Source of the DNA: a phage
Sequence record: OZ503099.1
DNA length: 48,179 nt
Reading direction: 5' to 3' (one strand)
The translations under genes were made by a program, and so were the position numbers. Position 1 is the stretch's first letter. Every line of letters starts with the position of its first letter. Positions 1,194 through 28,672 of this stretch are shown piece after piece. The notes beneath the pieces were generated by a model, which saw only the letters and a list, made by a program, of their open reading frames with translations, was not told the origin of the DNA and did no database searches.

Positions 1194-5197
<4,004 letters not shown>

Positions 5198-8977: not shown

Positions 8978-9271
8978 ATGAAAATTAAAATGTTGATTAC
9001 ATCTGTCCTGTTGGCTTCTTCTTTTGCCGTCAGTGCAACTTCCGAGGTGTGCAAAAACATCGGAGAAATCGCCATGAACACTGCAGATGTTCGCGATAAC
9101 GGTATCAGCAAGAATCTTGCGGAAGTGGTGGTAAAAGGTTCCGCAAAAAACAACGAATCAGCAGAAATAATCGGCCTTGCTATCGTAGAAATGGTTTATG
9201 CACGCAAGGATATGACCAAAGAGCAATTGCGTGATGTGGCTGTTTCTTTGTGCGAAAAGCAAGGGATGTAA
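8978..9271 (+). CDS. Small secreted protein (N-terminal signal peptide)
   Basis: MKIKMLITSVLLASSFAVSA then TSE: typical Sec signal peptide; RBS GAGGTGAG upstream; first gene of plus-strand island A. Confidence 0.55.
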   Translation: MKIKMLITSVLLASSFAVSATSEVCKNIGEIAMNTADVRDNGISKNLAEVVVKGSAKNNESAEIIGLAIVEMVYARKDMTKEQLRDVAVSLCEKQGM

Positions 9272-9280
9272 GATTCTGCT

Positions 9281-9424
9281 ATGAACGAACAAACAAAAGC
9301 TGACCTGATTTTCTATACTGATTTGTATGTCGATGCGGGTTACGACTACGAAGAAGCGGAACGCATGGCGAAAGACTTACTCCGCGTGATTGGCGTGATT
9401 TTTGATGAGGATAAGGTGATATGA
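9281..9424 (+). CDS. Hypothetical small acidic protein (47 aa)
   Basis: ATG 9281 to TGA 9424, hand-translated; stop overlaps next start (ATGA). Confidence 0.35.
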   Translation: MNEQTKADLIFYTDLYVDAGYDYEEAERMAKDLLRVIGVIFDEDKVI

Positions 9425-9711
9425 AAAATTATGAAGAGATGAGCGATTTTGAGATTAACTGCCGTGTGCACGCAGAGATTATGCAAATCTCAGGGTTGAA
9501 TTCATTTAAGGCAAAAGACTACTGCAACAACCCATCTTATGCATGGCCCATAATAATTGATAATCACATGTCAATTGAATGCGTCACGGTTAACCGGCAT
9601 GCGTTTACATATCGCGTGTATCACTCTGCATCGTTCACTAAAAGTACGCACGAAAACCCCCTTCGTGCCGCCATGATCGTCTTCCTTAAAATGAATGAGG
9701 ATAAATTATGA
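9421..9711 (+). CDS. Hypothetical protein
   Basis: 96-aa ORF, translationally coupled within island A. Confidence 0.5.
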   Translation: MKNYEEMSDFEINCRVHAEIMQISGLNSFKAKDYCNNPSYAWPIIIDNHMSIECVTVNRHAFTYRVYHSASFTKSTHENPLRAAMIVFLKMNEDKL

Positions 9712-9908
9712 GCCAGTGGATTAAGTGTAGTGAAATGCTACCTGGTAACGGTAGTACAGATAAAGAGTTCTTGGTGTATGAAACTTTGAATAATGCCGTT
9801 CAGCACGACTACTACATTGTTCCTGACGACGAGAGAAAGCCATTCTGGAATCACTACGGAAAATATGTAACGCACTGGATGCCACTACCACAACCACCAC
9901 AAGAATAA
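9708..9908 (+). CDS. DUF551-like small phage protein
   Basis: MSQWIKCSEMLPGNG...THWMPLPQPP resembles the DUF551 pattern as I remember it. Confidence 0.45.
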   Translation: MSQWIKCSEMLPGNGSTDKEFLVYETLNNAVQHDYYIVPDDERKPFWNHYGKYVTHWMPLPQPPQE

Positions 9909-9910
9909 AC

Positions 9911-9937
9911 AAAGCCCCTTTCGGGGCTTTTTCTTTA
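9911..9937. terminator. Rho-independent terminator (bidirectional)
   Basis: AAAGCCCC-TTTC-GGGGCTTT hairpin followed by T-run; flanked by A-run on the other side. Confidence 0.6.
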
Positions 9938-12438: not shown

Positions 12439-12857
12439 TTACTCCCGCGAACAACCGCAAACCACGGTTTACCGCTTCCGTCAGGGTCTTCCACCAAATC
12501 GCCAGTGCATCCAGCCGTATCCAGTAGTTTCATCTGATTGTACAGCGCCACCCACGGCTTGCTTCCGTAAGCGAATGATTGTGATGCGCCAGATGGTGCG
12601 CTCTGACTGGTAACGTAGCGACCAGCGGTATTTGCACTAATCAGGATGGAAGCCCACAGCATGATCGCATTTTGTCGGCATTCATCGTTTGGATAGCTCA
12701 GTTCAAGGCATTCACTGATTGATGCCACAAGACACAGAATACCGGATGCATCCGTTGTGGTAATAGTCATTCCACGGGATGCCATCTGGCTTACTAATTC
12801 TTCAGGTGTTGGTGCTGCCATTTTTTTTCGACTCCCGTACCTTCCACCACATTTCAA
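12429..12857 (-). CDS. Hypothetical structural protein
   Basis: 142-aa ORF in same series. Confidence 0.45.
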   Translation of the reverse strand: MKCGGRYGSRKKMAAPTPEELVSQMASRGMTITTTDASGILCLVASISECLELSYPNDECRQNAIMLWASILISANTAGRYVTSQSAPSGASQSFAYGSKPWVALYNQMKLLDTAGCTGDLVEDPDGSGKPWFAVVRGSKCK

Positions 12858-13086
12858 AGAGGTTTTTTATTACCAGAGACAGAGCGCCGAGGATTGACGC
12901 TACCGCCGCCCACTCTGTCAGGCTGTGTGGAATCATAGCCTCAAAATAAGATTGCGTGACAGGTGTTTGCTCTGCGACTTTCAGGCCGATGCCAGTGCCA
13001 ATAGATGCGTATCCAGCCTTGTCAATCACCTGCCCTGTCGTTCCGCTTATAATCTGCTCTGCGACTTGCCTTAGTGCTCCGTTCAT
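12802..13086 (-). CDS. Hypothetical protein with C-terminal hydrophobic segment
   Basis: 94-aa ORF; start position uncertain. Confidence 0.35.
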   Translation of the reverse strand: MNGALRQVAEQIISGTTGQVIDKAGYASIGTGIGLKVAEQTPVTQSYFEAMIPHSLTEWAAVASILGALSLVIKNLFEMWWKVRESKKNGSTNT

Positions 13087-13118
13087 TGCGTGTCTCGCTG
13101 ATGATATGTTTCCAGCAC

Positions 13119-13559
13119 TTATAGATTTGAATCAGCGAAAAAACAATGGCGACCACGCCAAGAATAATGTCCAATTTCGCCGCCCCATTTAAAAGTGATG
13201 GAAAGGATGAACAGATGGATGCCGATAATAATAAATGCGTACTGCGCATGAAGCGGCGTTTCTACAGGCGTGATAAATTCCCATACGAATGACTCTATCG
13301 CTACCAGCCATTCGTAAAGGCTCATCGTCAGCACGCAGAGCGCCATCTTTGTACTTTTGCGCAGTGCAATAGCTGGAAACAACCAGATCATAGACTGCGC
13401 AAGGTAATACAGATATTCGGCGGGAAATGAATCAACAAGCACCCATCCAAGATACACAGACATCGCCATTGCCGGAATGAACACCAGAAACGCGACCATG
13501 CCCGTGCAGGCAAAACCCAGCACATACATGATCATGATGGCAACGTCTGCGCCGAACAT
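13119..13559 (-). CDS. Integral membrane protein (about four hydrophobic helices)
   Basis: 146 aa with four long hydrophobic stretches. Confidence 0.5.
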   Translation of the reverse strand: MFGADVAIMIMYVLGFACTGMVAFLVFIPAMAMSVYLGWVLVDSFPAEYLYYLAQSMIWLFPAIALRKSTKMALCVLTMSLYEWLVAIESFVWEFITPVETPLHAQYAFIIIGIHLFILSITFKWGGEIGHYSWRGRHCFFADSNL

Positions 13560-13724: not shown

Positions 13725-13754
13725 GTTGACGTAGATTGATGTGACGTTTATAGT
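13725..13754 (+). promoter_or_regulatory. Promoter of island B with repeated TGACGT(AGA) sites
   Basis: TTGACG (13725-13730), 18 bp, TATAGT (13749-13754); TTGACGTAGATTG at 13725-13737; TGACGT at 13726-13731, 13742-13747 and 13759-13764. Confidence 0.45.
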
Positions 13755-13794
13755 AGGTGACGTAGAAACAGCAATAAATGTTAGGGTGAATGAG

Positions 13795-13992
13795 ATGAGA
13801 GCAGCAAGCATGTACTACTGTATGTTCCGCAATACCGTGATTGATTTCCGCGATTGTGTTGACGCAATCAGCAACGCTGGTTCCATTGATGACTTCAGCA
13901 TCCCAGAGCGCGGCGCTGCTGAACTAATGTATCACCTGGCTAATGCATACATTGCAAACTATGAACTTTTATTAGAAGAAAGTGGTGAATGA
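13795..13992 (+). CDS. Hypothetical protein
   Basis: ATG 13795 (MRAASMYY...) downstream of predicted promoter. Confidence 0.4.
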   Translation: MRAASMYYCMFRNTVIDFRDCVDAISNAGSIDDFSIPERGAAELMYHLANAYIANYELLLEESGE

Positions 13993-13993
13993 G

Positions 13994-14338
13994 ATGAAAG
14001 AATTTAAAGGTACGCCCGGGCCGTGGGTCGCAGATATTCGCGGAGGTTGCGCAGCTATTTACCCGTCTTGTCGAACTGATGACACGCCGGGCTGTCACCA
14101 CGACGATGACAGAAATATTGCCTTCTCTAGCAAGGGTGCAAAATACAACGGTATGCATTGGGAGATTGATGGCAGCGTTGTGCATGACTTTAATTTAATG
14201 GCAGCGGCCCCTGAGTTGCTTGAAGCTCTGCAAAAAATGCTTGGCAAGGCATACAAACAAAACTGGAATGAGCAATACCCAGAAGAATTGCTGTTAGCTG
14301 AAGAATCTATCAAGAAAGCATTAGGAAAGAAACAATGA
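13994..14338 (+). CDS. Hypothetical protein
   Basis: 114-aa ORF (MKEFKGTPGPW...), Cys/His-containing. Confidence 0.45.
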   Translation: MKEFKGTPGPWVADIRGGCAAIYPSCRTDDTPGCHHDDDRNIAFSSKGAKYNGMHWEIDGSVVHDFNLMAAAPELLEALQKMLGKAYKQNWNEQYPEELLLAEESIKKALGKKQ

Positions 14339-15144
14339 AAACACTAAGCAAAATCTATTCAGACAAAGAAACGCGCAACGGTATTGCTGTTAACAAAACC
14401 TATCTCGTGCCAGTGGAGCGAATCTATCTGGAGCCGGGATATAACATCCGTGAAGCAGATGAGCAACACGTTGAATATTTCGCTCAGTGCTGGGAATCAG
14501 GTCAGCCATTGCCAGCATTAACAGTTATCCCTGACGACAAAGGAATCCGCATTCTTGATGGACAGCATCGCTATCTCGGCGCATTGCGTGCCATTGAGCG
14601 CGGTGCACCAATCGTTCGCATTGAGTGTAAGGATTTCACTGGCGATGAGGCAGACAAAATCGCCTTCATGGTGTCATCCAGTCAGGGTAAGCAGCTTGAC
14701 CCGTTTGAGCGCGCAAAGGCTTATACGCGACTGAAGGGCTTTGGATGGACGAATGAAGAAATCGCCAAGAAGGTAGGGCGCTCAGTGTCTGACGTGCAAA
14801 TGCATTTGTCGTTGGGTGATGTGCCAGCGGAAGTAAAAGCGCGCATCAGTGCTGGGCAAATCAGCTATGCAAACGCCGTAGCAGTAACGCGTGAGCACGG
14901 AGATGATGCGGTAAAAGTTATCGACGAGGCAGTCGAAGAAGCGAAGGCGCAAGGCAAGGATAAGGTCACAGCGAAGGTGCTGAAGTCGAAAAAGATTAAG
15001 CCAGTGGACCGCCTGATTGAGTTACTGAAGCCAGCAGACCACGTGATTCTTCCTGCTGGTCATGTGGTGGTTGAGGATGAGGAATTTATCCAGATTCCTG
15101 TTGCTGATATTCACGAGGTCATGGCAATTCTGGAGAAGATGTGA
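14335..15144 (+). CDS. ParB/Srx-fold (ParB N-terminal-like, DGQHR motif) protein
   Basis: 269 aa with ...GIRILDGQHRYLGALRAIERG... in the N-terminal third, typical of ParB-like nuclease/NTPase domains. Confidence 0.55.
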   Translation: MKTLSKIYSDKETRNGIAVNKTYLVPVERIYLEPGYNIREADEQHVEYFAQCWESGQPLPALTVIPDDKGIRILDGQHRYLGALRAIERGAPIVRIECKDFTGDEADKIAFMVSSSQGKQLDPFERAKAYTRLKGFGWTNEEIAKKVGRSVSDVQMHLSLGDVPAEVKARISAGQISYANAVAVTREHGDDAVKVIDEAVEEAKAQGKDKVTAKVLKSKKIKPVDRLIELLKPADHVILPAGHVVVEDEEFIQIPVADIHEVMAILEKM

Positions 15145-15335
15145 TGAGTAAGTATGAAGAGTTGGACCTGAAGATATTGCACATGCTTTCTGTTAAGCCA
15201 ACTCCTGTTTTTGATATATGGCTTAAGTTTCGTGATGATGTTAGAGACATTACGGTTATTGATCGGCGTATGCAGGTACTGAAAAAGAAAGGTCTTGTTT
15301 ACAACGTTCGCGGATGTGGTTGGGTTAAGCTATGA
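15144..15335 (+). CDS. Small protein, possible winged-helix DNA binder
   Basis: 63 aa; helix-rich pattern (LKILHML...RMQVLKKKGLV); TGATG overlap with upstream gene. Confidence 0.35.
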   Translation: MSKYEELDLKILHMLSVKPTPVFDIWLKFRDDVRDITVIDRRMQVLKKKGLVYNVRGCGWVKL

Positions 15336-15505
15336 CACCAGAACAATTCATCGAAAAACAACTGCGCGCCAAGCTGACTGACATCGACCAGATGGCAATT
15401 GATGCGGCGATTCAGTATTACAAGCGCAATCAGAGCGCAAAGAAGGGAGGCATTTTTGAGGAATGCCTGAAGGTTGCAAAACAGCACATGATTAAGGTGA
15501 AGTGA
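15332..15505 (+). CDS. Hypothetical small protein (57 aa)
   Basis: ATG 15332 to TGA 15505, hand-translated; ATGA/TGATG overlaps with both neighbours. Confidence 0.35.
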   Translation: MTPEQFIEKQLRAKLTDIDQMAIDAAIQYYKRNQSAKKGGIFEECLKVAKQHMIKVK

Positions 15506-16044
15506 TGAAACTAAAAATCAGCAAGCTATTACTTGAATCAGCGTTAATCTTTCAGGCGCGCAATGATGTGCGTTACTACCTGAATGGCATTTGCTTTATG
15601 CCAGATGGTCGCATTGCCTCAACTGACGGTCATCGTGCGTTTATTGGCGGAAGCCATGACAATAAGCTGACAGAAAATGTGATCATCAAGATTGGAAAGT
15701 CTCCAACGAAACGCTATGAGTACGCCATCATTGATACCAAGGCGAAAATTGCAACGTATCATGATGAAGCTGGCGCGATGGTTGGCGCTGGTATCTGCGA
15801 AGAGATTGATGGTCGATTCCCAGATATTGATCGCGTGATACCAAAGGAAACGAAGGCAGCAGAGGAAATTGGTTTCAATGCTGGCTACCTTGTGGATGTC
15901 GAGAAAGTGGCTAAGCTGTTTAATCCTAAATTCTGTGGTGTCAAATTTGAACTGAATGGAAATACAAATGCAGCAGTTTGCTGTCTTAGTGCGCCATCTG
16001 GCGAGACTGCGAAGATTGTTGTTATGCCGATGAGGATTGATTGA
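15505..16044 (+). CDS. Truncated beta sliding clamp (DnaN)-like protein
   Basis: NDVRYYLNG...ASTDGHRAF, IDGRFPDIDRVIPK and C-terminal GFNAGYLVDV...KIVVMPMRID match my recollection of E. coli DnaN domain II/III segments and its C-terminus. Confidence 0.65.
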   Translation: MKLKISKLLLESALIFQARNDVRYYLNGICFMPDGRIASTDGHRAFIGGSHDNKLTENVIIKIGKSPTKRYEYAIIDTKAKIATYHDEAGAMVGAGICEEIDGRFPDIDRVIPKETKAAEEIGFNAGYLVDVEKVAKLFNPKFCGVKFELNGNTNAAVCCLSAPSGETAKIVVMPMRID

Positions 16045-16226
16045 TGGACATCAAAGAGAAAACAAAACTGGCTGCCATCGCTGCGCGTGATGCTTTAAAC
16101 ATGGGTTGCAGCGTAAGAGCGGCAAACGAAGCGTTTAATGAAATTGCTGGTTTTTATTTAAACCATAGCGGAAAACGAGATTTCATTAAGTTAGTTAACT
16201 TCTATGCAGACCCAGATTGTCAGTAA
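16044..16226 (+). CDS. Hypothetical small protein
   Basis: 60-aa ORF; TGATG overlap with clamp-like gene; last gene before terminator. Confidence 0.4.
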   Translation: MDIKEKTKLAAIAARDALNMGCSVRAANEAFNEIAGFYLNHSGKRDFIKLVNFYADPDCQ

Positions 16227-16228
16227 AC

Positions 16229-16257
16229 CAAAGCCCCTTCACGGGGCTTTCCTTTTA
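16229..16257. terminator. Rho-independent terminator
   Basis: AAAGCCCC-TTCA-CGGGGCTTT hairpin followed by CCTTTTATC. Confidence 0.6.
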
Positions 16258-17076
16258 TCACGCCAGATAAGTATCATCCTCAAACCACGAAATGTAAGCA
16301 TTGATATTCTGCGTCGAAGCATCCAGTGATGTTATGCGAAGCAGATACGTCGTATTTGGTGCCATGATAATTTGCTCGCCGAGTTTCGCCTGCGAGTTAC
16401 CCTGCCCCTGATTCGATGCATTCCCTTCGCTATACGTTGCTGCAACTGTCAGCTGCCCGATGTTTGTCACGGTAGCGCCAGTAATTAACTGCGCCGTAGC
16501 TGCTTGTGGTGTTATATCGTTGGGATTATTAATCTCCGCAGCCGTGCCGCCAGTGGCTACAGCTCCACGGTAGATTGACGCTACGACACCCTTACCGGTG
16601 TAGCCGATGATGCGTTGATTAAAAACGACCTGTTTTGAGCCGGTAATAAAAATGCTGTCAAGGCTGGCTCCGCCAGCAACATCAGTTACTCTGCGAGACG
16701 CAGTGAACAGCTTGCCTTGCTTGTTGGCAAACTCTGCATAGGACTGCGCGACAACCTGACTTGATGGTACTGATGTAGCAGTTCGCCATACCAGGACTTT
16801 CAGAGATGCAATGCCAGCAGGTATCTGTGACTTGATCACCTTCAGTCGCAGCGCCACGCCATAATAATTATTATTGTTGACGTCAATCCAGTAGTTGCCA
16901 GATTCAAATGGCGACACCTTCACGGACACGGTTCCGCTTGTTAATGGCTCATAGCCACCGGAAGAATTTAGCGGCACAATCTGTACCTGCAGTGCTGACC
17001 AGTCTGCTGACATGGTTTCGCTAAGCAAAACCTCTCCATCAGCCGGAGTTGTGTTTATTTCGTACCTGACAGCCAT
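16258..17076 (-). CDS. Hypothetical structural protein (Ser/Thr/Gly/Asn-rich)
   Basis: About 272 aa from ATG 17076, G-rich RBS upstream; low-complexity beta-rich composition. Confidence 0.45.
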   Translation of the reverse strand: MAVRYEINTTPADGEVLLSETMSADWSALQVQIVPLNSSGGYEPLTSGTVSVKVSPFESGNYWIDVNNNNYYGVALRLKVIKSQIPAGIASLKVLVWRTATSVPSSQVVAQSYAEFANKQGKLFTASRRVTDVAGGASLDSIFITGSKQVVFNQRIIGYTGKGVVASIYRGAVATGGTAAEINNPNDITPQAATAQLITGATVTNIGQLTVAATYSEGNASNQGQGNSQAKLGEQIIMAPNTTYLLRITSLDASTQNINAYISWFEDDTYLA

Positions 17077-17088
17077 AGAAACCCCCAA

Positions 17089-17730: not shown

Positions 17731-18801
17731 TTACAGCGGAGTTTGCGTGCCGTAACCGTTGAACACTTTGGACTTGCCAGTGAAATCCTTACGGATTTGC
17801 AAACCGAAAGCTGACCACACCATAAAGTTAAAGTTATCGTGCGGGTTGGCGCGAACTGCCGCGTAGGTGGAAACAGGCTGGGCAACGCGAGGACGGATGT
17901 ACATATCGTTGCGAACGTAGCCAACGAAATGGTTACCAGTCAGCAGGAAGTTGGTGCCAATCTTGCCGATGCGACCATTGCCGAACTGCGTGATGTACTG
18001 CTCAACAGTGCCACCTTTGAATCCAGCTGCATCAGAATACGGACGCATGAAGCTGCGACGCACTGCCGGGGAAACCCACAGAGTCACCTGCTCAAATACG
18101 TTCTGCGCATCCAGAATAGCCTGGAAATCCTGATTGAAGAAGGTCACGATCTCATCTGGCGTTGCGGTTTGCAGGTCGATATTCAGGCCGCCGGAAGCAT
18201 TCAGGTTAACCTGAATAGTGTTCGGGTGGTTAGTGATACCGTAACCAGTGTAAACGCCGTTCACGTTCAGAGTCTGGTCGCCAGTCAGCAGGTACTGCGC
18301 CATATCTGAACGCAGGTTAAAGGTGACGTTAGCCTGATCGTCAAGCAGTGGGTCAAAACCTTCAGACTGCATACCCCGCAGTTCGCGCCATTCGCGGCTG
18401 TAGCCAGTCTTGAAAATTGGAATTACATCGCCAGTGTAATCGTAGCGAGTTTTATCCAAATCTTCCGGCTCCTGACCAGACAGAGTGCGAACAACCTTAC
18501 CAGCATCGGAAGCAATGCGGCTGATTGCCACAGTCTTACCGATATTGATGTTTGCCGCGATACCCATCAGGTCAGCCATCATATCCTGACCAGCTTCGTT
18601 GCGGAAAACGCGGGTGGTGACGTTATCAACATCGCGCCAGTAATCCTTCGTTACCAGTGCGGTGGCGTTTAGTGCGTATTTTTTCGCAAGAGCATTTTCC
18701 GCATTAACAAAAACCTTGCGGTCAATCTTCAGGTGATTCCACTGGTCAGCCACCACTGCGGAGTTGGCTACCAGGTCTTTGGTAAAAATAATCTTTTCCA
18801 T
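17731..18801 (-). CDS. Major capsid protein
   Basis: 356 aa, size and position (after scaffold and decoration-like genes, before strong terminators) typical of an HK97-fold capsid protein. Confidence 0.6.
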   Translation of the reverse strand: MEKIIFTKDLVANSAVVADQWNHLKIDRKVFVNAENALAKKYALNATALVTKDYWRDVDNVTTRVFRNEAGQDMMADLMGIAANINIGKTVAISRIASDAGKVVRTLSGQEPEDLDKTRYDYTGDVIPIFKTGYSREWRELRGMQSEGFDPLLDDQANVTFNLRSDMAQYLLTGDQTLNVNGVYTGYGITNHPNTIQVNLNASGGLNIDLQTATPDEIVTFFNQDFQAILDAQNVFEQVTLWVSPAVRRSFMRPYSDAAGFKGGTVEQYITQFGNGRIGKIGTNFLLTGNHFVGYVRNDMYIRPRVAQPVSTYAAVRANPHDNFNFMVWSAFGLQIRKDFTGKSKVFNGYGTQTPL

Positions 18802-18803
18802 TA

Positions 18804-20683
<1,880 letters not shown>

Positions 20684-23153: not shown

Positions 23154-23378
23154 ATGCCAAGACCACGACGAGAGCCGATGGACATTATCACCAGCATTGT
23201 GGAGAAGCGGCAGCCGCTGACACTCCGTGATGTTCGCTACTTTGCCCGTTGCTATGTGGCGCTGGCTGATATGTCTAAGGGTGATATGTATGATTTGGTT
23301 CGTGAGAATTTTAACGTTGATGAACACAACCGCGTCACAATGCCGCGACGCGAGATGACTAAGTGGAGAGAGAAATGA
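23154..23378 (+). CDS. Hypothetical basic small protein
   Basis: 74 aa; AGGAG RBS at 23142-23146; first gene of island C. Confidence 0.45.
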   Translation: MPRPRREPMDIITSIVEKRQPLTLRDVRYFARCYVALADMSKGDMYDLVRENFNVDEHNRVTMPRREMTKWREK

Positions 23379-23959
23379 AGAAGTGGAAATATCTGAAAGG
23401 TTATGAGGATGATTTTGCTGGCCATGACACGGCTTGTCTTGTAGTTAAGTCAGGAAGCACTGGTGAGATTTTCTATCTAAGCATAGATTACGCTGGTCGC
23501 ATTGAAGTGATTGAGGGTTGCGGGGATATTGTTATTGCATACCGCGAGCCAATTACCGACGAACAAGACCTCAACGAATGTACTGGCGCTCCTGAAGCAG
23601 ATGTGAAGCGAGGTGGCTTTATTCCCAACACAACATTTGTTGGTGATTTCTTGCCTGAAGGGTATCCGATTTTTGGTCATCCCAATTGCCGATGCAAGGC
23701 AGTTAAGGTTGGAGAACTTCACACGGATGGGAAATGGCATGAGGCGCAACTTGGAAACAAATACCTGCGCGAGATTAAGCCGGGTGTATTTGTTGATGTG
23801 TACGATGTGCTCATGGCGTGGAATGCCACCAATCCAGCATTGCAGCACTTAATCAAGAAGGCATTGCAGGCTGGCGAGCGCGGACACAAATCACGCGAAC
23901 AAGATTTGCAAGACATCATTGACAGCGCAATTCGCGCAAAAGAACTGGAGATTAAATAA
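23375..23959 (+). CDS. Hypothetical protein
   Basis: 194 aa from ATG 23375 (ATGA overlap); Cys/His-containing. Confidence 0.5.
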   Translation: MKKWKYLKGYEDDFAGHDTACLVVKSGSTGEIFYLSIDYAGRIEVIEGCGDIVIAYREPITDEQDLNECTGAPEADVKRGGFIPNTTFVGDFLPEGYPIFGHPNCRCKAVKVGELHTDGKWHEAQLGNKYLREIKPGVFVDVYDVLMAWNATNPALQHLIKKALQAGERGHKSREQDLQDIIDSAIRAKELEIK

Positions 23960-24270
23960 TGGCATTTTGCGATATCACAATCGCGCAACGAAACGCGAAC
24001 TTTACCAACATTGCTGACACATCCGCACAACTGGTATCACTGAACAGCGACGGCAGCGCAGTGCTAAAAATCGGCACAGAAACAGCGCAATTCATCGTGC
24101 AGAATCTGTCGCAGGCGAACGCAAAGCAGGTACTGATTAGCACGGGTAGCGTGCTGTTTCTGGCTGGCAATTACAATGCACCTAACCTTGAGTGTTCACT
24201 GGTGCGCATCGTTGAAGCTGCGGTTGAGGAATCTGTTGATGAGTCAACAACAGTTCTCCCAATCGAATGA
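23959..24270 (+). CDS. Hypothetical protein
   Basis: 103 aa; TAATG overlap with upstream gene. Confidence 0.5.
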   Translation: MAFCDITIAQRNANFTNIADTSAQLVSLNSDGSAVLKIGTETAQFIVQNLSQANAKQVLISTGSVLFLAGNYNAPNLECSLVRIVEAAVEESVDESTTVLPIE

Positions 24271-24400
24271 GCCACAAAAACCATCTGCATGGTGTGAGCA
24301 AATGGAGCGCAATGCTAAAGATGGAGATGAAGCGTATGCTTATTTTCAGTTGAAGCAGATGTGGAAGCAGAGAGAAGAGTCGGAACACACCAGTTAAACA

Positions 24401-24426
24401 CAAGCCCCATCACGGGGCTTTTTTAT
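24401..24426. terminator. Rho-independent terminator (bidirectional)
   Basis: AAGCCCC-ATCA-CGGGGCTT hairpin followed by TTTTTTATT. Confidence 0.6.
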
Positions 24427-26036: not shown

Positions 26037-26076
26037 TTGATGTAGATTGAGAGGTGGTGCATACTATCTACATCAA
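26037..26076 (+). promoter_or_regulatory. Promoter of island D with palindromic operator-like site
   Basis: TTGATG (26037-26042), 17 bp, CATACT (26060-26065); inverted repeat TTGATGTAGAT (26037-26047) / ATCTACATCAA (26066-26076). Confidence 0.45.
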
Positions 26077-26097
26077 ATGATGAGTGAGGGAGAAATC

Positions 26098-26241
26098 ATG
26101 GTAATAGTCAAATTCAAAGAAACAGGATGCCGCAGAATGTTCAACCTTGAGCAAATCAAAATACGTCCATGCGGCAAGGTGGTTGCGCCATTTAGTCTGG
26201 TGCAGATGCGTGAATGCGAAATTGTTGAATATATTAAGTGA
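26098..26241 (+). CDS. Hypothetical small protein
   Basis: 47 aa from ATG 26098; four Cys. Confidence 0.4.
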   Translation: MVIVKFKETGCRRMFNLEQIKIRPCGKVVAPFSLVQMRECEIVEYIK

Positions 26242-26249
26242 GGCAGGCT

Positions 26250-26513
26250 ATGACGCAGCGCCAGGTGTACCAGTTATTTAGTGAGTGGTTTGATTATGTT
26301 GGTTTTGTCGGCATGACGGATAGAGAAAAGGACTTGATTTGGCTTGGGTTTTCTGTTGGTTATTGTCACGAAAATAGTAAATCAATGCTATCAGCGCTCC
26401 AGCAACTCTTGGAAATCTACGACGACCACTCCGGCAAGGTCTGGACAACATCAAGCAAGCGTCGCGCTCTTGATAATGCGCGTGCGGCGGTTAATAAAGC
26501 ATTGGGAGAATAA
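26250..26513 (+). CDS. Hypothetical protein
   Basis: 87 aa from ATG 26250. Confidence 0.45.
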   Translation: MTQRQVYQLFSEWFDYVGFVGMTDREKDLIWLGFSVGYCHENSKSMLSALQQLLEIYDDHSGKVWTTSSKRRALDNARAAVNKALGE

Positions 26514-26515
26514 TT

Positions 26516-26740
26516 ATGTGGCTTGTATTTAATATTGGATGCATAGAATGCGGTGTCTCATCAAATGTTGTTGCTGTTTATCCGCACAAACATGAAGCCG
26601 ATGCTGTCGCAGCAAAACTAAATGAAAAATTCTCATGGCGAGACGGCGGTCAAAACTCGTATGAGGTATTTAAGCTTGGTGAACTGTACGAGGTTGAAGG
26701 TGAATATAAAGAAATACTTTCTGATGGAGAAACAAAATGA
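26516..26740 (+). CDS. Hypothetical protein
   Basis: 74-aa ORF. Confidence 0.45.
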   Translation: MWLVFNIGCIECGVSSNVVAVYPHKHEADAVAAKLNEKFSWRDGGQNSYEVFKLGELYEVEGEYKEILSDGETK

Positions 26741-26952
26741 GCAACAAGAAGGTAATTGTTGGTGGCATTTACAAGAGTAATTACTCTTGGGGCGATGCAG
26801 GTGTGGCTAGTTTCATGGTAACTGCGGTTGGGTTGGAACACATACTTATCGCTGACTACCCATTGATAAAACTCAATGAATCCTGTTTAGAATATTGTGT
26901 TGGTAGAAAGGAATTCGAATCAAAATTTGAGTTTGTGGAGGAAACAAAATGA
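26737..26952 (+). CDS. Hypothetical protein
   Basis: 71-aa ORF; ATGA overlap. Confidence 0.45.
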   Translation: MSNKKVIVGGIYKSNYSWGDAGVASFMVTAVGLEHILIADYPLIKLNESCLEYCVGRKEFESKFEFVEETK

Positions 26953-27599
26953 AACTTATCGACCTGTTAGTTCAAGAATTGCCTAAGCGTGGTGGGTGGC
27001 CTCACAATGCGCTGTCAATTACCCAAGATGATGACGGTTCTCTGTGCGTATGGGACACAAATGACCCAAACTATGATGGATTGTCATGGAGACATCACAC
27101 AGGGAATAGCCTTGTATATTACTGGCGTGGAATTGATGCCGTACCTTTATCTTGCGACCACAGGGAGTCGATAGTGACCTATTGGCAATACAAATCAGCG
27201 ATCGCAGCATCGCAAAAGCCAGCATGGAACGGAGATGGCTTACCGCCAGTTGGTGAAAAAGTAGAATTTTTCATCAATCCAAAGTTTGGATACCGCAATG
27301 ACTGGATTCCTGCTGCTGGAACTGAAATGGAAGTAGTTGCACACAAGAAAACCACGGACGGAAACGATGTGGCTGTTTGCTACTGGGATGAGGGTGGCGC
27401 CGGTCGGTCATGCTGCTTCGTGCCTGAAAGCCTAAAGCCATTACGCACAGAAGCAGAAAAGAAGCATGAGGCTGTACTTGAGTCTATCTGCGCGGTGTTA
27501 GAAATGGTAGCTCAAGATTACAAGCGCGAGGACGAGGCCAAGCTAATTTATGAAGCTATCGCGGCAGGCAAGATTCCAGGTGTTAAACTGGATGATTAA
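26949..27599 (+). CDS. Hypothetical protein (216 aa, Trp-rich)
   Basis: Largest ORF of island D; no recognisable motif. Confidence 0.5.
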   Translation: MKLIDLLVQELPKRGGWPHNALSITQDDDGSLCVWDTNDPNYDGLSWRHHTGNSLVYYWRGIDAVPLSCDHRESIVTYWQYKSAIAASQKPAWNGDGLPPVGEKVEFFINPKFGYRNDWIPAAGTEMEVVAHKKTTDGNDVAVCYWDEGGAGRSCCFVPESLKPLRTEAEKKHEAVLESICAVLEMVAQDYKREDEAKLIYEAIAAGKIPGVKLDD

Positions 27600-27675
27600 A
27601 ACAATATTCAGCGTCGTAGAGATATTGTGCTATGCGATAATAATATTTGTTCTGTGCATGCTGATAAGATAAATC

Positions 27676-27700
27676 AAAGCCCTCACTTAGAGGGCTTTTT
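27676..27700. terminator. Rho-independent terminator
   Basis: AAAGCCCTC-ACTTA-GAGGGCTTT hairpin followed by TT. Confidence 0.6.
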
Positions 27701-28672
27701 GCTTGCTGACTGCCACGCTTCACGCTGCTTATCAAGCCTTTCCTGCGACGACTCAAGAATAACTGGCTTGCCATCCATTAACAGCGATGGGATTTGGCTG
27801 CAGTGGCAATTATATCTATTGCCATTCTCACTATAAAACGTGTCAATCTCTTCTGGCGTGTAAAAGCGCCCGTGTCTCGCTGCGTGAGTCTGGCGGGTCG
27901 TGCGCATCAATGCCGACTGCCACAGCATCACCGTCTCAATGCCTAACTCTTCGCGCGCCTCAATGACCTCTCTCCTGTTAGCCTGCCTGAGTGTTCCTGT
28001 GATTTCTGTTTGCGCCAACTGTTTCGCATAGCTGTGAGATACATCAACACGTTTAACAATATCATCCTCAACATCGCGAGGATTAGCTCCACGAGCAATG
28101 CCTTCCATAATGACAGATGCCAGTTGCTGACGGGAGTAATCGCTCAATCCGCGCCAGTCGGAATAACCTTGTGTGTACGCCAGCTGGAGCCGATTCAGGT
28201 AAGGCTCACTGTAGAGTATCGCGGCAATCGGCCTTTGCTCAGCATAAACAGGAGACAGGCTTGACAGTTCCGAGTTGGCTTTCTGTGTGCCAGCCTGATA
28301 CACATCACCAATGAATACGTTAGCCCACATTCTGCCGTGACCGAAATCATCACCCTCAAGCAAAATCTCGTCAACCAGCTCCTGTAATTCATCCATGAAA
28401 GTGGCGGCCCGCGCGCTGCTGAAATCATAGAAATACAAGCCGCTTGATTCTGCATTGGTCTGACTACTTGGAATGGTGCGAAACAACTCAAGGGCACGAA
28501 TCCTGAGTTGCTTGTATTTGCGCGTTATCACCTTATCCATCTTCGACAGGCGAGTTGCAGCGCCTAACGGGTCCGTCAGACTCTGCGATATGCGCGGCTG
28601 TGGCAGTCTTGCGTTAAACCGGAGTATCTTCATTTTCGTCTTCCGGTGGTGTGTCTTCGCGGTAGCTTTCAT
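27683..28672 (-). CDS. Head morphogenesis protein (Mu F-like minor head protein)
   Basis: Position directly downstream of portal; C-terminal region has the character of Mu-F/SPP1 gp7-type proteins; start uncertain. Confidence 0.5.

Follow-up and report, generated by a model that had tools for sequence, protein, structure and literature searches.

A promoter-to-terminator island of a siphovirus codes for an orphan ParB-family protein and a truncated sliding clamp that conserves its partner-binding pocket

Organization of the island

The sequence record OZ503099.1 (48,179 nucleotides, analyzed at its full length and hereinafter called the window) is a complete-looking siphovirus genome, which codes for terminase, portal, head and tail proteins, primases, a helicase, recombination proteins and a single-stranded DNA-binding protein (SSB). 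Antisense within its minus-strand morphogenesis genes, with head genes on the right flank and connector and tail genes on the left, lies an island of seven plus-strand open reading frames (ORFs; g1–g7, 13795–16226), placed between a promoter (13726–13754) and a hairpin terminator (16230–16250). Its products include an orphan ParB-family protein (g3) and a truncated version of the bacterial β sliding clamp (g6, hereinafter mini-β). We compared the island with 79 IMG/VR loci around homologs of its ParB, which together with the window make a set of 80 loci, ParB being present in 80/80 by selection; the locus counts given here refer to this set. The features of the island, all on the plus strand, are:

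13726..13754, +: sigma70-type promoter TTGACG-17-TATAGT, matching 10/12 consensus positions
13758..13794, +: box 2 TGACGTAGA (13758–13766), conserved 5′ leader and ribosome-binding site AAACAGCAATAAATGTTAGGGTGAATGAG
13795..13992, +: g1, 65 aa, phrog_8760, no assigned function, variable cargo (17/80 loci)
13982..14338, +: g2, 118 aa (probably 114 aa from ATG 13994), phrog_1273, no assigned function, variable cargo
14335..15144, +: g3, 269 aa, orphan ParB-family protein
15141..15335, +: g4, 64 aa, phrog_7185, no assigned function, variable cargo (6–8/80 loci)
15332..15505, +: g5, 57 aa, predicted small helical protein, phrog_4439, backbone gene (73/80 loci)
15502..16044, +: g6, 179/180 aa, clamp-like mini-β, backbone gene (57/80 loci)
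16041..16226, +: g7, 60/61 aa, no assigned function, variable cargo (6/80 loci)
16230..16258, +: intrinsic terminator AAAGCCCC-TTCAC-GGGGCTTT followed by CCTTTTAT, with an 8-bp stem that includes 5 G-C pairs (hairpin 16230–16250)

All seven coupled genes proposed in an initial annotation of this sequence are in place. Successive ORFs overlap by 11, 4, 4, 4, 4 and 4 nt (ATGA, GTGA or TTGA in the 4-nt junctions), indicating translational coupling, and each 4-nt junction additionally has an in-frame ATG 3 nt downstream, which creates a TGATG coupling. The GTG listed as the start of g1 (13741) falls within the promoter; g1 most probably begins at ATG 13795, which lies behind an AGGGTGA ribosome-binding site. 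Similarly, in g2, g4, g6 and g7, an ATG a few nucleotides past the listed GTG or TTG is the likelier start, and the homologs of g6 begin with MKLKI and are 179 aa long. The small cargo proteins offer few clues: g2 has a conserved AAPELLEAL motif and no match in Pfam, NCBIfam or PDB, g7 has no family match, and g4 finds no sequence match in Pfam, NCBIfam or PDB, its sequence pattern being compatible with the possible winged helix of the initial annotation. On examining the island, we found no evidence for a nuclease.

The promoter, the terminator and the TGAYGTAGA boxes

The −35 element of the promoter is embedded in a 9-mer, box 1 (TTGACGTAGATTGA), and box 2 sits over the predicted transcription start, the two forming a direct repeat 31 nt apart. 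A promoter consensus scan by itself is not above chance, with 4 promoter-like sites against 7.3 expected, and hence the case for the promoter and terminator rests on their conservation in relatives. The exact promoter hexamers are kept in 64/73 related loci having a left boundary. The alignment of the loci reveals a footprint in which box 1, the −10 element, box 2 and the entire leader down to the ribosome-binding site are conserved, as against a variable 9-nt core of the spacer, upstream flank and even first gene; the leader is nearly invariant also where the first gene differs. Likewise, at least 45/76 loci keep the stem of the terminator while its loop varies. Thus, conservation bears out the earlier proposal that the island has its own promoter and terminator.

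The boxes belong to a larger set, as the 9-mer TGAYGTAGA occurs in 12 exact copies in the window as compared to 0.68 expected (maximum of 4 in 200 simulations):

8932, 13727, 13758, 19693, 23110, 26038, 31331 and 40404 on the plus strand; 23085, 26067, 36437 and 36454 on the minus strand: TGAYGTAGA copies

They are found at the heads of opposite-strand or early units, mostly as pairs (8932, 13727/13758, 23085/23110, 26038/26067, 36437/36454 and 40404), with one copy on the −35 element and its partner, as a direct or an inverted copy, some 30 bp further downstream. The copies look like an operator or promoter family used throughout the phage, and are not operators of the palindromic kind. Sibling plus-strand islands with the same box-bearing promoters are present within the minus-strand structural block at 8978–9930, 23363–24421 and 26047–27836. 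Two of them end in the same type of hairpin (AAAGCCCC...GGGGCTTT; 9911–9930 and 24402–24421), and the larger ORFs of the sibling islands all belong to PHROGs without an assigned function.

The ParB-family protein g3

The g3 protein displays an N-terminal ParB/Srx domain (~22–115) with a DGQHR motif, a ParB/KorB helix-turn-helix (HTH) domain (~120–205) and a small C-terminal α/β domain (~210–269). It is recovered by the Pfam models HTH_ParB (2.6e-11) and KorB (1e-5), both above their cut-offs; the Pfam ParBc model (PF02195) gives no match even with the threshold relaxed to E ≤ 1. A profile of the g3 family (alignment A3, 23 sequences down to 36% identity) matches Thermus thermophilus Spo0J over residues 43–183 with E = 1.9e-17, followed by other ParBs, Noc and KorB. 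As the match to Spo0J spans both the nucleotide-binding and the HTH domains, g3 is a real member of the ParB family by fold and architecture. The initial annotation had already recognized a ParB/Srx fold with the motif ILDGQHRYLGAL, and these profile and Pfam matches agree with it, the motif being found at residues 73–84.

The nucleotide motifs depart from those of the partition ParBs. Their GERR motif is replaced by G(Q/H)HR, i.e., the ILDGQHRYLGAL motif, and their ENLQRE by (T/S)SSQGK, with the equivalents of E111, N112 and R115 being S, S and G. In g3 itself, the two motifs read DGQHRY and SSSQGK as compared to GERRxR and ENLQR, retaining only the last arginine and the glutamine. With the hydrolysis and N-gate residues thus replaced, g3 is possibly CTP-independent or uses another NTP. 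It scores below the cut-offs of TIGR00180 (39.4 bits against 58.45) and of the Noc model. We also considered and rejected an assignment of g3 to the DndB/DGQHR-domain or GmrSD_N (DUF262) proteins: it scores 16.9 bits with the DGQHR model TIGR03187 (cut-off 58.85), Pfam DndB and GmrSD_N give E = 0.1 and 0.23, and the short motif alone is held in common.

No ParA/SopA-like ORF is found in the window, and the N-terminus of g3 (MKTLSKIYSDK) has no LG[KR]GL ParA-binding motif. Residues 1–21 (14335–14397) are nevertheless conserved in the family as MxTLxQxYxxK with an invariant Y8 and K21; this segment, modeled with low confidence, may be a partner-binding linear motif rather than one for ParA. A search for a parS-like site recovered no repeated palindrome in the window, and no palindromes besides the terminator stems are common to the ParB-bearing phage groups. 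Three perfect 16–18-bp palindromes occur as single copies within coding regions (18199–18216 ATTCAGGTTAACCTGAAT, 19523–19538 GTTGACAGCTGTCAAC and 26772–26789 CAAGAGTAATTACTCTTG). The TGAYGTAGA boxes were tried as g3-binding sites, a link that found no support: they are absent near parB in phages whose ParBs are 72% and 45% identical to g3 with a conserved recognition helix. As the boxes do not accompany the more distant ParB homologs, we do not assign them to ParB. The annotators of phage Sf11 named the g3 ortholog KorB-like; we found no KorA-like partner or OB-type palindromes, no search having been aimed at KorA homologs. Taken as a whole, g3 is probably neither a partition protein nor a nuclease, and its most economical reading is that of a DNA-binding protein acting in a KorB- or Noc-like manner.

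The mini-β protein g6

The initial annotation had described a truncated clamp, an identification that profile searches, structure prediction and residue-level alignment agree on. The AlphaFold2 model of g6, built from a 60-sequence alignment, has a pLDDT of 96.1 and a pTM of 0.91, and matches sliding clamps only. A profile of the g6 family aligns with E. coli β with E = 3e-24 and 33% identity over 147 residues. Positions 7–118 of g6 correspond to β 136–252, i.e., domain II and the DGRFPDxxRV linker, and positions 120–180 align with either half of domain III, ending in the C-terminal VVMPMRL. In the model, the stretch between residues 51 and 109 is devoid of helices, the second, channel-lining helix of domain II being replaced by a loop. 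Thus, as modeled, g6 comprises about one and a half clamp domains: domain II without one helix, the II–III linker and half of domain III. Domain I, which is missing, contributes I78 and F106 to form half of the β dimer interface (PMC11139829). With domain I, one channel helix and one half of domain III missing, g6 is predicted to be unable to close a head-to-tail ring of the β2 type. Its scores with the curated models are below their cut-offs (TIGR00663, 35.6 against 137.65; DNA_pol3_beta_3 and DNA_pol3_beta_2, 17.5 and 15.9 against 27).

By sequence, what g6 keeps is the pocket that receives clamp-binding motifs. We took the list of pocket residues from PMC11139829 and mapped it by the profile alignment to E. 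coli β, finding 16/18 to be identical in g6 and β. The exceptions are L177, which is an alanine, and V344, which is not conserved; the identical residues are:

R152, L155, T172, G174, H175, R176, P242, R246, V247, V360, M362, N320, Y323, P363, M364 and R365 (β numbering)

Among diverse members of the family (30–50% identity), the residue of the window protein is kept with a mean of 0.75 in the pocket columns as against 0.35 elsewhere (Mann–Whitney p = 3.7e-7). Ten of the 12 most conserved residues of the family are listed pocket residues, the other two being D22 and G29 in the segment DVRYYLNG. This pocket-specific conservation implies that selection has acted on the pocket and not on ring formation.

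The family is large: an exhaustive search (E ≤ 1e-3, clustering at 50% identity) recovered 1,995 cluster representatives, almost all free-standing proteins of 170–210 aa. PHROG 3007 and many RefSeq records label it 'RusA-like Holliday junction resolvase'. We reject this label as a propagated annotation error: there is no RusA match in Pfam or NCBIfam, and the model matches only sliding clamps. Because RefSeq mislabels the family in this manner, its biology has been hidden from annotation-based surveys. By tblastn, mini-β is present in 298 phage records, and ParB homologs in 326, many of them without the clamp. In the unrelated siphoviruses Kagunavirus Snoke and Burkholderia phage Bcep43, mini-β is a solo opposite-strand gene with its own terminator inside the head-gene cluster:

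Snoke, 3462–3983: solo mini-β gene
Bcep43, 3498–4079: solo mini-β gene

The Bcep43 record already carries the note 'DNA Pol III b subunit fragment'. In Hungariovirus C130_2, mini-β lies among a dUTPase, two methyltransferases, a primase and a helicase. These solo genes and the C130_2 context, along with the 23/80 loci with ParB but no clamp, reject the idea that ParB and mini-β are an obligate pair; rather, they are independent modules expressed from one cassette in this phage group.

Gene content of the island in related phages

The window shows about 90% DNA identity to the BASEL phages Bas77-81, IME207 (Shuimuvirus), Sf11 (Cedarrivervirus), Sa179lw (Buchananvirus) and Skate and seszw (Skatevirus), the island lying in a siphovirus genome of about 46–48 kb. 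Membership in Dhillonvirus was considered and rejected, the relatives being from Skatevirus, Cedarrivervirus, Shuimuvirus and Buchananvirus.

Besides ParB, only g5 (73/80) and g6 (57/80) are retained in most loci, across phages of Salmonella, Escherichia and Klebsiella. When present, g6 always directly follows g5, starting 155–391 nt past the g5 start (170 nt in most loci). The remaining genes of the window island are sporadic: g1, g2, g4 and g7 occur in only 6 to about 38 loci, g2 being the most frequent (about 38 loci, 25 of them detected by tblastn), so that the island is not one co-inherited seven-gene module. Cargo is swapped at three slots, one following the leader, one separating ParB from g5 and one following g6, and the 80 loci together code for 116 protein clusters. 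Accordingly, the island is a conserved expression cassette with a three-gene backbone (g3, g5 and g6) and not a seven-gene machine.

Part of the cargo of the relatives is of a counter-restriction type. In 15/80 loci (19%), a DNA methyltransferase gene begins exactly at the ParB stop codon (C5 in 10 and N6/N4 in 5), an arrangement also seen in Bas80, and in 12/80 an acidic protein of a PHROG labeled 'anti-restriction' is the first gene. Other cargo includes HNH endonucleases, an ORF with an Endonuclease VII (Endo VII) domain and a small winged HTH protein; a small cargo protein of the relatives that is distinct from g4 matches HTH_24 with 1.5e-4 (cluster c27). The Endo VII-domain ORF (449 aa) overlaps the C5 methyltransferase slot after ParB in nine loci (L033, L035, L038, L043, L051, L061, L063, L065 and L077), and could stem from the insertion of a nuclease or from a methylase gene that has been split. 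The island of the window has none of this methyltransferase, nuclease or anti-restriction-like cargo. ParB itself is 80–99% identical in the loci without a methyltransferase.

Deletions in a genome-reduced relative

The Salmonella phage seszw was subjected to 300 rounds of CRISPR-driven iterative genome reduction, with 69 mutants sequenced (PMC9825161). Its ParB is 99% and its mini-β about 93% identical to those of the window, and its island consists of gene 19, ParB (gene 18), the g5 homolog (gene 17) and mini-β (gene 16), with no methyltransferase. The smallest mutant, seszw_300L.2 (36,655 bp), has lost genes 17 and 16 as well as the membrane gene of the left flank, and keeps genes 19 and 18. 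Counting the records with a gene at ≥99% nucleotide identity gives 72 for the coat gene, 70 for ParB and 47 for mini-β. Thus, mini-β is lost in about a third of the viable mutants, and ParB is wholly lost in none (~70 genomes). Two viable variants have in-frame 15-aa deletions in ParB, one in the N-domain (residues 55–69, including the conserved PALTV strand) and the other in the DNA-binding domain (160–174, after the recognition helix), indicating that an intact ParB is not strictly essential on the test host. Likewise, g5 and g6 are dispensable on the laboratory host. The initial annotation had held that deletion without a phenotype in any host would refute an accessory module; what the mutants show is the loss of g5 and g6 from viable phages, which goes part of the way. 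The burst size of the smallest mutant falls from 140 to 37 (PMC9825161); as more than 30 genes are missing, the drop cannot be attributed to any one of them.

Genomic setting

The phage is of the virulent type. No integrase, repressor or plasmid-replication module was seen in the window. No Rfam families or tRNAs were found there either. The replication module (36.9–46.2 kb) codes for two primase-type proteins, a helicase, a VRR-NUC protein, a PDDEXK (DUF3799) exonuclease, an AAA_24 protein, an SSB and an HNH-AP2 endonuclease. A DNA polymerase was not detected among all the ORFs of at least 320 aa in the window, and the phage therefore probably depends on the host Pol III and its β clamp. The genes next to the island are:

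12802–13559, −: two small membrane/lipoprotein genes of the PHROG 'moron' and 'lipoprotein' categories, adjoining the island on the left
16258–17088, −: 276-aa variable gene between the island and the head genes, in 37/80 loci and absent in seszw

On the left flank, the homolog of the 146-aa gene is the one deleted in the smallest seszw mutant. On the right, the 276-aa gene matches a PHROG without an assigned function solely by its C-terminal 170 aa.

Functional interpretation

Based on the above, we propose with moderate confidence that the island is an early accessory operon, which combines a KorB/Noc-like DNA binder with a soluble decoy or adaptor built around the clamp pocket. Under this proposal, g3 would be a sequence-specific DNA-binding organizer or regulator of the phage (or host) DNA, and in those relatives whose methyltransferase gene starts at the g3 stop codon, it may additionally assist this neighboring enzyme. 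As to mini-β, no strict clamp-binding motif is present in the phage proteome and loose motifs occur at the chance level, so that its ligands are likely host proteins. We predict that its pocket, nearly identical to that of the host clamp, most likely binds host proteins with clamp-binding motifs, the candidate targets being the clamp-loader δ subunit, Pol III α, Hda, MutS/MutL and Pol II/IV/V. In binding them, mini-β might shift the host replication and repair machinery on which the phage depends. Both backbone functions would be accessory rather than core.

Several observations weigh against this proposal. The early expression of the island is deduced solely from the type of its promoter. To a phage in need of Pol III, a decoy that draws off Pol III partners would itself be harmful, and hence the target of mini-β, if any, must be selective. 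The viability of seszw mutants without g5 and g6, or with 15-aa deletions in ParB, indicates that the phage has no strict requirement for either on the test host. For g3, the search yielded no parS-like site, and the TGAYGTAGA boxes fail to co-occur with the distant ParB homologs. Finally, beyond this phage group ParB and g6 are inherited separately, so that the island does not amount to a single machine. With respect to the initial annotation, its view that the island does not specify virion structure is borne out. Its suggestion of a DNA-targeting accessory module stands in so far as the cassette carries counter-restriction cargo in relatives (the methyltransferases and the anti-restriction-like first gene), and falls short in that the window has none of this cargo and the seven genes are not one co-inherited module.

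The link to methyltransferases raises the alternative that g3 serves chiefly as a cofactor or loader of DNA-modifying enzymes in counter-restriction, which binds or slides on phage DNA and activates or directs the adjacent methyltransferase, and in the window is a remnant or works with an enzyme encoded elsewhere. The exact abutment of the methyltransferase gene with the ParB stop codon, including in Bas80, and the anti-restriction-like first gene are consistent with this; further, fusions of ParB-fold domains and methyltransferases are frequent in phages (PMC12704722), and a thymine dioxygenase depends on a phage ParB-like protein (PMC13229309). However, about 80% of the loci, the window included, have no methyltransferase in the island and yet keep ParB at 80–99% identity, and ParB persisted in all the ~70 seszw genomes, whose island has none. 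Moreover, the ParBs associated with 5mYOX have no HTH domain (PMC13229309), whereas g3 has one. We therefore regard this role as the main one of g3 as unlikely.

To a similar degree, we doubt that the island is merely a recombination hot spot gathering unrelated morons behind a strong promoter, with the ParB-like and clamp-like genes as passengers without a shared or important role. The diversity of the cargo, the deletability of g5 and g6, and the sibling islands, which share the promoter boxes and hairpin terminators and consist solely of genes without an assigned function, would all fit such a scenario. Nevertheless, it does not account for the retention of ParB, g5 and g6 in most relatives across phages of three host genera, for the strong residue-specific purifying selection on the clamp pocket in a family of about 2,000 clusters, or for the fact that 300 rounds of forced genome reduction never removed ParB altogether.

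It is also improbable that mini-β targets the clamp of the host or works as a clamp in its own right, be it by capping the domain-I face of an opened β monomer and poisoning the β2 rings to shut off the host, or by assembling into a new kind of ring that holds polymerases on phage DNA. The fold is clamp-like, the phage has no detectable polymerase or clamp, and a helix-loop (AKLFNPKF) aligns with β A271–F278, which includes the dimer-interface residue L273; in principle, four protomers with three β-α-β-β-β motifs each would supply the 12 motifs that permit a closed ring. Against this, domain I with the interface residues I78 and F106 is missing, a loop replaces the channel-lining helix of domain II in a confident model, I272 is replaced by a lysine, and the gene is dispensable, whereas a sole processivity factor would not be.

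Lastly, the resemblance of g3 to the ParB/Spo0J family and database labels such as 'ParB-like partition protein' evoke a genuine partition protein that keeps the phage as a plasmid-like episome (carrier state or pseudolysogeny), but with no ParA/SopA gene in the window, no N-terminal LG[KR]GL motif, no repeated palindrome or parS found, a score below the TIGR00180 cut-off, and no integrase, repressor or plasmid-replication module in a virulent-type phage, such a role, also entertained in the initial annotation, is very improbable.

Returning to the decoy or adaptor proposal, we tentatively extend it to the family as a whole. It is possible that mini-β represents a widespread and hitherto undescribed class of phage effectors, in which a pocket domain unable to encircle DNA titrates or re-routes host proteins with clamp-binding motifs, thereby giving polymerase-less siphoviruses control over the host replisome and repair. 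The recurrent opposite-strand placement of the gene in head-gene clusters of unrelated phages (Kagunavirus, Naesvirus and the present group) might then reflect a need to express it independently of late transcription. Sliding clamps serve as hubs of interaction and as targets for drugs; a natural and highly conserved soluble half-clamp keeping only the partner pocket would, if this holds, be a new viral way to interfere with replication and repair, and a ready-made tool to probe or block interactions via clamp-binding motifs. The orphan ParB, in turn, adds a tractable lytic-phage case to the growing group of ParB-fold proteins that act outside partition. Direct tests of the system are feasible, as the relatives Bas77-81 are in the public BASEL collection and a seszw mutant without g5 and g6 exists.

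Comparison with known systems

The components of the island are already visible in annotations, although partly mislabeled, and we found no functional study of this ParB or of mini-β in the open-access literature searched. The chromosomal ParB/Spo0J and Noc proteins are CTP-dependent DNA-sliding clamps. From these g3 differs in its altered GERR and ENLQR motifs and its scores below the TIGR00180 and Noc cut-offs, as well as in having no ParA, ParA-binding peptide, parS or membrane-targeting helix and being encoded by a virulent-type phage. With KorB of plasmid RK2, a global repressor of the ParB family that is likewise a DNA-sliding clamp, g3 shares the KorB DNA-binding domain; however, its nucleotide-pocket residues are altered and the paired TGAYGTAGA promoter boxes do not track the ParB family. 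As with the ParB-fold proteins of DNA-modification systems (PMC12704722; PMC13229309), the ParB-fold protein stands beside DNA-modifying enzymes in a subset of the relatives. Unlike the ParB–methyltransferase fusions and ParB-dependent dioxygenases, the two are separate proteins here, g3 has an HTH and the island of the window codes for no modifying enzyme.

The island as a whole resembles the moron cassettes in the late operons of tailed phages in having its own promoter and terminator, in being inserted in a structural operon and in its variable content between close relatives. It differs from them in being a multi-gene, opposite-strand unit with a conserved backbone, and one of several sibling units sharing boxes and hairpins.

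The most interesting element is mini-β. It is homologous to domain II, the linker and part of domain III of DnaN, with 16/18 identical pocket residues, but at 179 aa (366 in DnaN) it has no domain I and half of domain III, has lost one helix of domain II, and is dispensable. Other phage factors are known to act at the interface between the clamp and its partners: MuC of phage Mu uses clamp-binding motifs on the host β (PMC12867686), and Gp168 of phage Twort is reported to inhibit β (PMC8565349). While mini-β would act at the same interface, it is not homologous to either. MuC and Gp168 bind the host clamp via clamp-binding motifs or by plugging its channel, whereas mini-β supplies the pocket side, with the partners of the clamp as its predicted targets.

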